Shown piece by piece: positions 22,112 through 25,475 of a stretch of 64,000 nucleotides of DNA. Both the position numbers and the translations under genes were made by a program. This DNA comes from a phage. The notes below the pieces were generated by a model. The model made no database searches and was not told where the DNA came from. It worked only from the letters and a program-made list of their open reading frames with translations. The stretch lies in sequence record PZ445440.1; one strand, 5' to 3'. Each line of letters starts with the position of its first letter. Position 1 is the stretch's first letter.

Positions 22112-22324
22112 TTAATTTTGGCCAGTATTTATTTTTCGCCTTTGGACGGCATTAACATCTGCGAGGTATTTTTCCAGCTTGCGCTTGCGTGTATAATCAG
22201 CTTTAGAACCAGTTTGACGGATATCCTCGTTTAAATGAGAAATAGAATGTCCTAATTCTCTTCGGATTTCATCCAATTGGGTTACAGTAAGATTACGAAG
22301 TTGTCTTTCGTTTAATTGCTGCAT
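22112..22324 (-). CDS. hypothetical protein (rI.1 position)
   Basis: ORF track; 70 aa; between rI and tk as in T4. Confidence 0.6.
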
Positions 22325-22351
22325 ATATACCTCTTGGTTAGATATTAGTAT

Positions 22352-22933
22352 TTATAACAACCCTGTCAAATCGTTCCAATGCTTCCGGCATAATGACACA
22401 TATCTATCGGTATCACCAATTTCAATTTGACTGCCATCTGTAATTGGAAGTCCGTCTTCCGTGACTCTAGCTACCATTGTGGCCTTTTTACCACAATGAC
22501 AGACACCTTTAAGTTCAACAAGCTTATCGGCAATAGCCATTAATGCTTGAGAACCTTCAAATAGATTACCTTTAAAATCTGTTCGTAGTCCGTATGCCAT
22601 TACCGGCACATTGTATACGTCAACAATACGACTAAGTTGATACACCTTTTCAGTAGTTAAGAACTGAGCTTCGTCAACAAATACACAGTGAATATCCTTT
22701 TGTGCTGCAGCCCATTTATAGAATTCAAAGATATCCATGTCTTTTGTAATTATATTGGCGTCCTGACGAATACCAATACGAGAGACTATTTCACCTTTTG
22801 AATCACGAGTATCAATAGCCGGTTTAAGAACTAATACACCCATGCCACGTTCTTTATAGTTATGTGCGGCAGTAAGTAATGAAGCAGACTTACCAGCGTT
22901 CATAGCGGCATATGTAAAAATTAAACTAGCCAT
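22352..22933 (-). CDS. tk: thymidine kinase
   Basis: 193 aa; P-loop AMNAGKS and C-terminal zinc cysteines CHCG...CRKH. Confidence 0.95.
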   Translation of the reverse strand: MASLIFTYAAMNAGKSASLLTAAHNYKERGMGVLVLKPAIDTRDSKGEIVSRIGIRQDANIITKDMDIFEFYKWAAAQKDIHCVFVDEAQFLTTEKVYQLSRIVDVYNVPVMAYGLRTDFKGNLFEGSQALMAIADKLVELKGVCHCGKKATMVARVTEDGLPITDGSQIEIGDTDRYVSLCRKHWNDLTGLL

Positions 22934-22942
22934 AAGAGTCCC

Positions 22943-23125
22943 TTATAGTGAATTCACGTAGTCAATGAGTTCTTGTTCTTTCCTGTCAAATGATTCCAAC
23001 AATGCTTGATATTCTTCATCTGTTAAAGGAGCATATTCATCATACGCATTGGTGGCCGCTTGCTCATCCAATAGGTCGTGGATAAGTTCGAACAGTTTAG
23101 TTTTCTCTTCTTTAGTCAATTTCAT
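22943..23125 (-). CDS. small acidic hypothetical protein (60 aa)
   Basis: ORF track; ATG start. Confidence 0.6.
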   Translation of the reverse strand: MKLTKEEKTKLFELIHDLLDEQAATNAYDEYAPLTDEEYQALLESFDRKEQELIDYVNSL

Positions 23126-23586
23126 TTAGGTTCCCAATCAACAATCACAATTTCTAGTTTAGTGGAATACGTATCTAAAATCTCTTCGATGACATCCCAG
23201 TTTCCACCACCAATACCTGCACCAATTCTTGGCATATAAATTACAGGCTTTGTTATCTTATTCTTTCCGAATTCATTTAATTCTATTATACAATTCATTA
23301 AAGCATAGTACTCAAAATTAGGTCCAGGCTCAAACTGTGTATAAAGATTAAAGCAATAAGCTTTATGGGTCTTAAAATATTTTTCATAAACCGAATAAGT
23401 CCCGAGTTTAGACTCGTCTCCGAATTCGGTTTGAAGTTTATCGGCTTCCAGAATTTTTGGATAAGCCTTTGCTAATTGTCCTGCTACACCGGCACCCATT
23501 GTATGAAAACAATTACACCCATGAGCAATATTATTACCTTTAGAAAACAGGGCGACAATATCGCCCTTGATATAGTTTTTAATCAC
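23122..23586 (-). CDS. macro-domain protein (ADP-ribose binding/processing fold)
   Basis: ORF track 23122..23616 begins with TTG; probable GTG start 23586 with AGAGGA upstream; GDIV...AHGCNCFHTMGAGVAGQ and IGAGIGGG glycine-rich motifs. Confidence 0.7.
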   Translation of the reverse strand: MIKNYIKGDIVALFSKGNNIAHGCNCFHTMGAGVAGQLAKAYPKILEADKLQTEFGDESKLGTYSVYEKYFKTHKAYCFNLYTQFEPGPNFEYYALMNCIIELNEFGKNKITKPVIYMPRIGAGIGGGNWDVIEEILDTYSTKLEIVIVDWEPK

Positions 23587-23926
23587 TTGCTGCAAGTCCT
23601 CTAGTATAAGAGTCAACTAGACGGTCCACCATAGAATTGCATGCTGCCTTATCTTTAGGTTCCGCCACCGAGCATTCTAATATTTGCCATTTTTTATGAT
23701 ATCGTTTAATTAAGGTAGACGCCTTGAACCTACTAGACGCCCCATCTTTTTCTCCGTCTTTATATGCGTATAACAATTTTTGTGAAAAATCTACTTTACA
23801 CTCTTGACTTTTACCACAATAATCAGACGCCGTTCTGTTTGTATACTCCGTTACATCAGTATATGTAGTATTAGCAAGAGCGTTAAATGAAACCAAGCCA
23901 ACTATTAAAGCCAACATTTTGGTCAT
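23579..23926 (-). CDS. secreted/periplasmic protein with N-terminal signal peptide (115 aa)
   Basis: MTKMLALIVGLVSFNALA signal-like N-terminus; four cysteines; ATGA overlap with next gene. Confidence 0.65.
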   Translation of the reverse strand: MTKMLALIVGLVSFNALANTTYTDVTEYTNRTASDYCGKSQECKVDFSQKLLYAYKDGEKDGASSRFKASTLIKRYHKKWQILECSVAEPKDKAACNSMVDRLVDSYTRGLAASD

Positions 23927-24465
23927 TCTTTTATTTCCAGTAGTTTATTTGATTTAAGGTAATTAGCCTTTTCTAGGACTTCAGAAGCATATTTACTTCC
24001 AGCACTTGTCTTCCATCCAGCATTATATGAGGATATAGCTTTTCTTATATCCCCGTTATGTATATTTAACCAATAAGAAAATTCGATATAAGCCCATCTG
24101 GCTGAATTAGACCGCTTAGATAGCATTTTCTTAATTTGGGCATCAGTCATATTATAACCAAGCTGGTTAATTCTTGCCCTCATTGTTGGTAGATAATTTT
24201 GGAACATTCCATACGCATGGTGACCTTTCTTATCTTTAAGATTAATACCGGCAGATGATTCCTGCCATAGTATTGCGGCCATTATGTATCCAAGTCCTTT
24301 CTTATGCATATTTTCATGCGTTTTAAATTTTCCGTCCTTAGAAAACTGTTCCCCAAACTGATAAGCATAATTCAAGTTATCGAGTTGGACATTACTAAAA
24401 GTATGCTCGGAGCTATGTGCTGATAATGAAAGAGCAAATAGACCAGCGAGTAGTGCTTTTCTCAT
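23923..24465 (-). CDS. periplasmic lytic transglycosylase-like protein (SLT domain, signal peptide)
   Basis: Signal peptide MRKALLAGLFALSLSA; catalytic-region motif ILWQESSAG...AYGMFQ. Confidence 0.7.
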   Translation of the reverse strand: MRKALLAGLFALSLSAHSSEHTFSNVQLDNLNYAYQFGEQFSKDGKFKTHENMHKKGLGYIMAAILWQESSAGINLKDKKGHHAYGMFQNYLPTMRARINQLGYNMTDAQIKKMLSKRSNSARWAYIEFSYWLNIHNGDIRKAISSYNAGWKTSAGSKYASEVLEKANYLKSNKLLEIKE

Positions 24466-24473
24466 GTTTACCT

Positions 24474-24932
24474 CTAGATTTTAATCACTGCTTTAGAAGC
24501 TTTTCCTGGTAGTCGTTTACTGTTAATAATAGCCATTCTGCATTGAAGAGTCTTCATTTTGAATGCTGGATTTTCGCGACAAACTGTAAGTCCTAACCAA
24601 AGATTTCCATCGGTTATTTCTAAACGGCCTGGACGGTATTCGACGCCTTCGACAAAATCTTCATCAACGTCCGGACGAGCCGGCATTGATAAAAATTCTG
24701 CAACTTCTTTAACATGATTTTTTACTTTATGAAATAATTCAAAAACGTAATTCTCATCTATTTCTCTCTGGATGGCACGATCTAAGAGATGCTGAGAATA
24801 CTTGATATGAAAGCCTGGTAGTCCAAGAGACTTTGCAGCATCTTTTATACCGGCATTTATTTTGCGGAACTCCGTTTCAAAGATTCGACGGAGTTTATTA
24901 CGGCGGATAAAAACTTCCGAATTGATAGTCAT
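24474..24932 (-). CDS. regB: endoribonuclease RegB
   Basis: ORF track 24474..24956; ATG 24932 (MTINSEVFIRRNKLRR...) near-identical to recalled T4 RegB. Confidence 0.9.
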   Translation of the reverse strand: MTINSEVFIRRNKLRRIFETEFRKINAGIKDAAKSLGLPGFHIKYSQHLLDRAIQREIDENYVFELFHKVKNHVKEVAEFLSMPARPDVDEDFVEGVEYRPGRLEITDGNLWLGLTVCRENPAFKMKTLQCRMAIINSKRLPGKASKAVIKI

Positions 24933-24939
24933 TTTGATT

Positions 24940-24992
24940 TCTCCTCTAGTTGACAAGTCTATAGTAACACAACTAGAGGAGAAGTAAACTAC
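24940..24992 (-). promoter_or_regulatory. early promoter for regB (GTTTAC-17-TACTAT) inside 12-bp inverted repeat that includes the regB SD
   Basis: CTCCTCTAGTTG ... CAACTAGAGGAG arms read in sequence. Confidence 0.5.
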
Positions 24993-24993
24993 T

Positions 24994-25209
24994 TTATTGA
25001 TAAAACGGAGTTAAAGCCCAAGATTCTTTAGATACCATATTGGCGAAATGCCTCATCTCTTCGATTTGGCGACGACGCTGGTCAGCATAGTCTTCTTCGC
25101 CTTCTTCCTTACAATCTTCAAGGTCTTCTTCAAGATACTTTAAGTATTCACTACAAATTTTGTTGACCTTTTCTTGGAAGTCCAATAACCCAGTAATAGT
25201 AGAAGCCAT
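24994..25209 (-). CDS. small acidic hypothetical protein (71 aa)
   Basis: ORF track. Confidence 0.6.
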   Translation of the reverse strand: MASTITGLLDFQEKVNKICSEYLKYLEEDLEDCKEEGEEDYADQRRRQIEEMRHFANMVSKESWALTPFYQ

Positions 25210-25475
25210 TAGTATTTTTCCTCAGGACGAAATACTGCACGACATGCCCACATGCTGGCTTCTTTTAGATGTTGCTTAGCATACTTAAGAGCCTGCACTG
25301 CATCCATATCTTCTTTGGTTTGTTGCTCTGTTTCGTTTTCTTTCAAGATATATGCTTCTTCAATCAGAGCATCAAACAACAATCCAAGACGGACTTCGGC
25401 ATCTTTAATAGCGTTCACTTTACTGATTTTATCATCGGTATGCGGCTTGTAGCCTTTGATGTCTTCAATCGACAT
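25209..25475 (-). CDS. hypothetical protein (88 aa)
   Basis: ORF track 25209..25643; start moved to ATG 25475 with GAGGAAA upstream to avoid long overlap. Confidence 0.55.
   Translation of the reverse strand: MSIEDIKGYKPHTDDKISKVNAIKDAEVRLGLLFDALIEEAYILKENETEQQTKEDMDAVQALKYAKQHLKEASMWACRAVFRPEEKY

Follow-up and report, generated by a model that had tools for sequence, protein, structure and literature searches.

A tk.4/adfM ortholog of phage Bas46: a predicted ALC1/TARG1-like macro domain with a glutamine in the position of the catalytic lysine

The locus between vs and tk

The window, by which we mean the whole stretch of 64,000 nucleotides of phage DNA analysed here (record PZ445440.1), carries on its minus strand a gene for a protein of 154 amino acids, located between vs and tk (Table 1). 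A comparison over 2.2 kb gives 100% identity between the window and Escherichia phage ChristianSchoenbein (BASEL phage Bas46, Mosigvirus, MZ501056.1), in which the gene is bas46_0206, annotated as "hypothetical protein" with coordinates identical to 23586..23122. In the direction of transcription the minus-strand genes follow each other in the order regB, vs.1, vs, tk.4, a 60-aa DUF7438 gene and tk. This order puts the macro gene upstream of tk, and the first-pass annotation, which had called it downstream of tk, describes the plus-strand coordinates but not the transcription.

Table 1. Coordinates in the window of the genes and features discussed in the text
Feature	Coordinates	Strand	Remarks and basis
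vs (valyl-tRNA synthetase modifier)	23579..23926	minus	PHROG 1256, E=1.8e-35, and annotation; upstream gene in a tightly packed string
adfM/tk.4 ortholog (bas46_0206)	23122..23586	minus	154-aa single-domain macro protein, GTG start; ORF and annotation
60-aa gene, DUF7438	ATG at 23125-23123	minus	adjoins the 3' end of the macro gene
tk (thymidine kinase)	22352..22933	minus	annotation; two genes beyond the macro gene in the direction of transcription
Shine-Dalgarno GAGGA	23597..23601	minus	10 nt upstream of the GTG; conserved in Bas46, T4, mobillu and PP01
GTG start codon	23584..23586	minus	8-nt overlap with the end of vs (GTGATTAA); sequence
8-bp hairpin, codons 7-13 of the macro ORF	23549..23567	minus	candidate
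H22-G23-C24-N25 (HGCN motif)	23512..23523	minus	H22/N25 correspond to SCO6735 His24/Asn27, N25 to PhiKZ gp104 N23
Y82-T83-Q84	23335..23343	minus	Q84 at the position of DarG K80, TARG1 K84 and SCO6735 Gln85
P119-G128 (PRIGAGIGGG)	23203..23232	minus	diphosphate-binding glycine loop; G122/G124 correspond to SCO6735 G126/G128
ATGA overlap	23122..23125	minus	stop TGA (23124-23122) of the macro gene, ATG (23125-23123) of the next gene; sequence

Taken mechanically, the open reading frame is longer (23616..23122, minus strand) and would start with a TTG and encode 164 amino acids. We rejected this start. The ATG of T4 tk.4 lies at the codon homologous to the GTG of Bas46 and is directly preceded by an in-frame TAG, and a conserved Shine-Dalgarno sequence stands before the GTG, so that the TTG start at 23616 is unlikely; it is also at variance with the homologs of bas46_0206, which all begin with "MI". 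We thus retained the GTG start overlapping the upstream stop that had been noticed at first reading, the stop TAA of vs being at 23581-23579. From the overlap between this stop and the GTG, the macro gene is probably coupled to vs in translation. When we scanned positions 22200-25400, we obtained 7 promoter matches against 11.2 expected from shuffled sequences and 3 terminator matches against 1.8, which we counted as not above the shuffled expectation; hence no promoter of its own can be claimed for the macro gene. According to RNAfold, a U-rich stretch located 3' of the candidate hairpin in codons 7-13 is predicted to pair with the Shine-Dalgarno region.

The slot occupied by the gene, directly after vs and before tk, is the same in Bas46, mobillu, T4 and PP01, where the gene is named tk.4; in a Klebsiella T4-like phage, one extra gene stands between vs and the macro gene. 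T4 Tk.4 is 83.7% identical to the Bas46 protein over 153 of 154 amino acids, and has in common with it the start position and all the invariant residues described below. The two loci differ by the start codon (ATG in T4, GTG in Bas46), by the length of the overlap with vs (4 nt in T4, 8 nt in Bas46) and by tk.2 and tk.3, which are neighbours in T4 and are absent from Bas46; the two proteins differ by 25 substitutions, one of them in the glycine loop (G127 in Bas46, K in T4). Judging from identity and gene order, bas46_0206 is the ortholog of T4 tk.4/adfM. The gene is real and under strong purifying selection, with a dN/dS of 0.074 against T4 tk.4 at synonymous sites which are nearly saturated (pS=0.61).

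Macro fold and active site

The first-pass annotation had seen in this frame a macro domain, on account of the motifs GDIV, AHGCNCFHTMGAGVAGQ and IGAGIGGG, which are all found in the translation of bas46_0206, and had named profile searches as the check, with failure to place the protein in the macro fold as the adverse outcome. We ran these searches and the protein was placed in the macro fold: the Pfam family Macro (PF01661) is matched with 27.4 bits for a gathering score of 22 (E=3.4e-6), from position 2 to position 117 of the 118 of the profile. Sequence comparison with the PDB and structure prediction agree with this result. With phmmer, the PDB matches are BT1257 (1.6e-10), Poa1p (1.6e-8), SCO6735 (8e-5), and DarG and TARG1 (about 1e-3), while a profile of the family gives BT1257 (4e-17), TARG1 (2e-16), SCO6735 (3e-14), Poa1p (1e-12) and DarG (8e-12 and 9e-11). 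The AlphaFold2 model, computed with 49 homologs, has a mean pLDDT of 91.6 and a pTM of 0.88, and displays the alternating strand/helix pattern of macro domains in a three-layer alpha/beta/alpha arrangement. Compared with the PDB by Foldseek, this model matches best TARG1, Poa1p, BT1257, the DarG macro domains and SCO6735 (prob 1.00, E from 3e-10 to 4e-7, TM-scores of about 0.7-0.8), and 149 PDB chains are reached at E<=0.001. The top 50 are all natural macro domains or designed hydrolases (the OSH55 series, which also appears in the PDB sequence search), and the viral MacroD-type domains of coronaviruses and alphaviruses have far lower scores. From the Foldseek, phmmer and profile matches taken together, we placed the protein, as modelled and aligned, among the macro domains of the ALC1/TARG1-like class.

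This is a very large family. By tblastn, 2,791 phage records match, from phages of Escherichia, Klebsiella, Salmonella, Pseudomonas, Vibrio, Acinetobacter and other hosts, and an exhaustive HMMER search retrieved 5,240 cluster representatives (50% identity) at E<=1e-3, of which 1,532 at E<=1e-10. In their GenBank records, many homologs are labelled "macro domain protein", "Poa1p-like" or "phosphatase". Some relatives are fused to NUDIX or adjoin genes for NAMPT, PRPP-synthetase or NMNAT; among the longer relatives checked with Pfam, Macro stands alone apart from one NUDIX fusion. The size of the family and the frequent proximity of NAD-salvage genes suggest uses beyond DarT2. We looked for DarT beside three bacterial or metagenomic relatives (P0105, P0247 and P0230) and found none on the three contigs; in these three contexts, the only ones covered, small ORFs, an SLT gene and NAD-salvage genes give the contigs a phage-like appearance.

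For the study of conservation we aligned 253 homologs, including 150 representatives with pairwise identities below 50%. Both ADP-ribose-binding loops, HGCNC..MGAGVA and PRIGAGIGGG, are present in the Bas46 protein and near-invariant in this alignment. The invariant or nearly invariant residues are H22, G23, N25, C26, G33, D49, N80, Y82, T83, Q84, P119, G122 and G124: Q84, Y82 and D49 are each kept in all 253 sequences, N25 in 252, H22 in 246, and P119, G122 and G124 in at least 251. As far as the alignment reaches, D49 is an invariant residue specific to the family.

The residue of interest is Q84. We aligned the family by hhalign with a DarG-type profile, whose members are Mtb DarG, Taq DarG, Thermosipho DarG and PhiKZ gp104 (prob 98.5%, E=1.7e-15, 143 columns), and T83-Q84 came to lie opposite the T-K of FPTK; in the alignment of the family profile to TARG1, the same two residues fall on the T-K84 of LITK. 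As aligned, Q84 thus replaces the catalytic lysine (K80 in DarG, K84 in TARG1). This glutamine in the lysine column, read from the alignments, is the finding which the present analysis adds to the known macro-domain call.

A glutamine has been described at this position in SCO6735 of Streptomyces coelicolor (PDB 5E3B), where Gln85 is stated to be the equivalent of the lysines of TARG1 and DarG, where the mutants Q85A and Q85E are dead, and where Asn27, itself required for activity, locks Gln85 while Gly128 is also needed (PMC9411070). This enzyme hydrolyses thymidine-linked ADP-ribose on DNA, by a mechanism proposed to be water-mediated, and protects against DarT (PMC9411070). When the C-terminal 100 residues of the Bas46 protein are used in phmmer, only the glycine loop is aligned, PRIGAGIGGGNW against PRIGCGLAGGTW of 5e3b, and PRIGAGIGGG then corresponds directly to PRIGCGLAGG; since the numbering of the 5e3b chain is offset by 20, G122 and G124 are equivalent to G126 and G128 of SCO6735. 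The N-terminal half of SCO6735 gives no direct alignment, and the equivalence between Q84 and Gln85 is hence established by transitivity, via TARG1 and DarG. The equivalences of H22 and N25 in Table 1 come likewise from the alignments to TARG1 and DarG, N25 being aligned with the TARG1 serine which has been equated with Asn27 of SCO6735 (PMC9411070). By this comparison, the chemistry of the Bas46 protein is most likely of the SCO6735 type rather than of the DarG/TARG1 type.

Proposed role and alternatives

A role against DarTG2 is known for the T4 ortholog. In a T4 transposon library grown on a DarTG2 host, tk.4 was the single significant hit, and a clean tk.4 knockout sensitised T4 to DarTG2; this genetic evidence comes from a November 2025 preprint (bioRxiv 10.1101/2025.11.20.689424), whose authors renamed the gene adfM (anti-DarT factor Macrodomain), remarked on its structural resemblance to DarG of M. 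tuberculosis, and proposed, rather than demonstrated, an enzymatic removal of ADP-ribose from DNA by T4 AdfM. Another anti-DarTG2 factor was in fact expected, as T4 remains resistant to DarTG2 when both adfA and adfN are missing (PMC11825919). The idea put forward at first reading, that the gene could reverse a host defence acting by ADP-ribosylation such as DarTG, has thus been reported genetically for the ortholog (10.1101/2025.11.20.689424), and both the macro domain and its DarTG role are already known through T4 and through existing annotations. The phages Bas35-Bas47, Bas46 among them, are resistant to DarTG1 (PMC11825919); our literature search found no publication in which Bas46 was challenged by DarTG2. 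Macro domains were present in 41% of myoviruses in a 2022 survey (PMC9503650). We also searched the text of the CmdTAC paper for a link to a phage macro domain, and the word occurs in the reference list only.

We consider it likely that Tk.4/AdfM of Bas46 is a stand-alone ALC1/TARG1-like macro ADP-ribosyl hydrolase of the glutamine type, serving as an orphan antitoxin against DarTG2. We infer from the T4 ortholog and from SCO6735 that the Bas46 protein would confer resistance to DarTG2 as in T4, that it would act enzymatically on dT-ADPr, and that its Gln84 would be the counterpart of Gln85. The sequence of events would be the following. AdfM would be expressed from within the tightly packed string regB-vs.1-vs-tk.4-tk. 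The host toxin DarT2 would add ADP-ribose to thymidines of single-stranded phage DNA and so block replication; the macro domain would bind the ADP-ribose placed there and hydrolyse the N-glycosidic bond between ribose and thymine, by which the DNA would be restored. In this reaction Q84, held by N25, would position the distal ribose, and water would be the reactant, not a catalytic lysine.

Another reading, which we regard as unlikely, is that the main substrates of the protein are small derivatives of ADP-ribose, such as ADP-ribose-1''-phosphate or O-acetyl-ADP-ribose, in RNA repair or in NAD+ recycling. Poa1p is among the best matches both in sequence and in structure; the "phosphatase" label is carried by PHROG 335, which the Bas46 protein matches with E=2.5e-66, as well as by many GenBank records; the NUDIX fusion and the NAMPT, PRPP-synthetase or NMNAT neighbours of relatives point in the same direction, and it has been suggested that soluble ADPr derivatives may be the preferred substrates of many macro domains in phages (Iyer et al., PMC9503650). 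However, no NAD-salvage genes neighbour the macro gene at the Bas46 and T4 loci, Poa1p has a serine and not a glutamine at the position of Q84, which means that its active site differs, and the phenotype of T4 tk.4 is specific to DarTG2 (10.1101/2025.11.20.689424). The processing of small derivatives and the reversal of DarT2 are not mutually exclusive.

Still less likely, in our estimation, is a mainly non-catalytic neutralisation of DarT2, in which the protein would bind the toxin or the ADP-ribosylated product ("interaction-inhibition"). Dead mutants of SCO6735 (Q85A), DarG (K80A) and TARG1 (K84A) do inhibit DarT in vitro, that of SCO6735 most strongly (PMC9411070), and the phage factors AdfA and AdfB act by binding DarT (PMC11825919). 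However, the 253 homologs, diverse as they are and drawn from phages of many hosts, keep the whole active-site pattern unchanged, which is more readily reconciled with a conserved chemistry on small molecules than with the binding of one fast-evolving toxin; moreover, the protein is devoid of the DarT-binding C-terminal domain of DarG.

Alt, ModA and ModB, the three ADP-ribosyltransferases (ARTs) of T-even phages, modify arginine, and this linkage is normally removed by enzymes of the ARH/DraG type, whereas the targets of ALC1-like macro domains are esters of acidic residues, and thymidine; it is hence very improbable that the gene reverses or tunes what the phage itself does to host proteins by ADP-ribosylation or RNAylation. 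This tuning of the phage's own marks had been offered as a possibility at first reading and obtained no support: macro and ART genes do co-occur in myoviruses (PMC9503650), but the annotation of Bas46 has no ART gene adjoining bas46_0206, and in the T4 transposon screen the loss of tk.4 is tolerated on plain K-12 and has an effect only with DarTG2 (10.1101/2025.11.20.689424).

If the hydrolase reading is right, T-even-like phages would carry a dedicated eraser of DNA ADP-ribosylation, and AdfM would join AdfA and AdfN, the latter a NADAR enzyme that acts on guanine, in a layered answer to DarTG defences. An intact tk.4/adfM would then predict resistance to DarTG2, which matters for phage therapy and for the prediction of host ranges, a point already published for T4. 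Of interest beyond this are the lysine-free active site of the glutamine type and the collision of names with the AdfM of PhiKZ. As the invariant glutamine takes the place of the catalytic lysine of DarG and TARG1, just as in SCO6735, a glutamine-type chemistry, if confirmed, would make this family a second case, and a very abundant one, in which ADP-ribose is taken off thymidine independently of a lysine.

Comparison with known systems

The macro domain of DarG (PDB 5M31, 5M3I, 7OMU) has the same fold, belongs to the same class and presumably has the same substrate. Membership of the DarG family is nevertheless ruled out, by score, by the catalytic lysine, by domain architecture and by gene context. 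The NCBIfam equivalog NF048014 gives 31 bits for a cutoff of 250 bits, and the DarG model of PADLOC gives 32 bits for the Bas46 protein against 133 bits for gp104 of PhiKZ; DarG has Lys80 where the Bas46 protein has Gln84; the DarT-binding C-terminal domain of DarG is absent, the 154-aa protein matching profile positions 4-148 of 338 only; and no darT adjoins bas46_0206, the neighbours of which are vs and the 60-aa gene.

Human TARG1/OARD1 (PDB 4J5R) is the best Foldseek match (E=2.9e-10), and it is colinear with the family profile over the whole domain. TARG1 also removes dT-ADPr; its catalytic dyad Lys84/Asp125 is, however, replaced by Q84/G126 in the Bas46 protein. The best PDB sequence matches are BT1257 of Bacteroides thetaiotaomicron (PDB 2FG1/2AFC), which shares with the Bas46 protein the motifs N-x-x-x-Q and PRIGCGLAGGKW, and yeast Poa1p (PDB 6LFQ). 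The latter, an Appr1p phosphatase (Foldseek E=6e-10), has the HxCNC motif in common with the Bas46 protein, but displays FTS where the phage family has the invariant YTQ.

The only phage "AdfM" for which de-ADP-ribosylation has been obtained in vitro is gp104 of PhiKZ. This protein, which counters DarTG2 and received its name independently, removes from DNA the ADP-ribose put there by DarT2; its mutant N23A has a reduced activity, and it is imported into the phage nucleus (PMC13309987). The paper mentions neither T4, nor Tk.4, nor SCO6735 (PMC13309987). Like the Bas46 protein, gp104 is a single macro domain of phage origin with the conserved asparagine (N23, corresponding to N25). The two belong nonetheless to different subfamilies: gp104 is a close relative of DarG (E=9e-25 to Mtb DarG) in which the lysine of FPTK is present, and BLASTP aligns only 23 of its residues with the Bas46 protein. 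As gp104 is of the DarG-like lysine type, unlike Tk.4, the biochemical proof obtained for this "AdfM" cannot automatically be transferred to the Tk.4 type.

It seems to us quite possible, if somewhat short of probable, that AdfM of the Tk.4 type is a mechanistically distinct macro hydrolase of the glutamine type, of the SCO6735/BT1257 kind, which would have been recruited independently of the DarG-derived, lysine-type AdfM of PhiKZ, and which may be a broader eraser of ADP-ribose. This last point is suggested by the invariant D49, by the distribution of the family over 2,791 phage records and about 5,200 clusters, and by the NAD-salvage or NUDIX genes near some of its members. If there were indeed two recruitments, phages would have solved the problem of DarT2 twice, with two macro chemistries under the one name AdfM; if the eraser is the broader one, the reversal of DarT2 would be only one use of the Tk.4-type family.

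For the Tk.4 type, SCO6735 is a more relevant precedent than gp104. The similarity between SCO6735 and the Bas46 protein is distant (phmmer E=8e-5, 23% identity in Foldseek), and the lysines K34 and K89, which position the DNA in SCO6735, are apparently not conserved, their places being taken by about A32 and G88 in Bas46 when one counts, without direct alignment, the spacing from N25 and Q84. Both proteins are nevertheless ALC1-like, with a glutamine at the position of the lysine, an asparagine and a histidine upstream of it, and the loop PRIGxGxxGGxW. SCO6735 is a stand-alone antidote to DarT, as the Bas46 protein would be; the former is cellular, and the latter is carried by a phage.

A predicted hairpin at the start of the macro ORF

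Codons 7-13 of the macro ORF (bas46_0206, the ortholog of T4 tk.4) hold an 8-bp hairpin, AGGGCGAU-AUU-GUCGCCCU, and in the fold predicted by RNAfold the sequence GUUUUCUA, which lies 3' of this hairpin, pairs with the Shine-Dalgarno region UAGAGGAC (minimum free energy -19.3 kcal/mol, z=-2.3). The hairpin is present at identical codons in T4 and PP01. It is also found in the distant Vequintavirus Bas52, where a compensatory change replaces a C-G pair by an A-U pair. Only five sequences were compared, and in one of them, a Klebsiella T4-like phage, the hairpin was not found. The matches returned by a terminator scan of positions 22200-25400 of the window were not above chance. The hairpin could act as a translational gate, making the macro gene dependent on the ribosomes which complete vs, the gene upstream.

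Positions of the features discussed (window coordinates unless another source is named)
Feature	Position	Strand	Remark
60-aa gene, DUF7438	22943-23125		PHROG 653; single gene between macro gene and tk in Bas46
Codon D49 of macro gene	23440-23442		invariant residue
Hairpin and Shine-Dalgarno region	23549-23603	minus	RNAfold
vs.1 homolog, 180 aa	23923-24465	minus	PHROG 600, 'unknown function'
Macro relatives with NUDIX fusion or NAD-salvage neighbours	2468-3211 of L010 (another stretch) and neighbours; phage matches H56 and H66

Neighboring genes

Where Bas46 has one small gene in the interval between the macro gene and tk, both T4 and mobillu, a close relative of Bas46, have three (tk.1-tk.3). 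An indel of about 415 bp separates Bas46 from the three-gene arrangement, and this is why BLAST matches to most Mosigviruses come in two pieces.

As for the vs.1 homolog, its match to the SLT lytic-transglycosylase profile stays below threshold (18.8 bits against 21.3), and its N-terminus, MRKALLAGLFALSLSAHS, read by eye, is apparently hydrophobic and signal-like. The label 'endoribonuclease' which it bears in certain records is wrong.

Relatives of the macro protein and known macro domains

Certain relatives of the family are fused to a NUDIX domain or adjoin genes of NAD salvage (NAPRTase/NAMPT, NMNAT-like, PRPP synthetase), which hints at a tie, in other phages, to NAD+/ADP-ribose recycling.

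The name AdfM was given independently, in 2025-2026, to two macro subfamilies, the T4 Tk.4 type and the PhiKZ gp104 type; in the portions consulted of the T4 preprint (10.1101/2025.11.20.689424) and of the PhiKZ paper (PMC13309987), neither cites or mentions the other. The two subfamilies look unrelated. At the catalytic lysine position of DarG, the T4 Tk.4 type has Gln, whereas the PhiKZ gp104 type, which is DarG-like, has Lys. Asp49 is conserved in all family members of our homolog alignment (253/253), while DarG, PhiKZ gp104 and BT1257 each have Tyr at this position; Asp49 is a family-specific residue and a candidate for mutagenesis.
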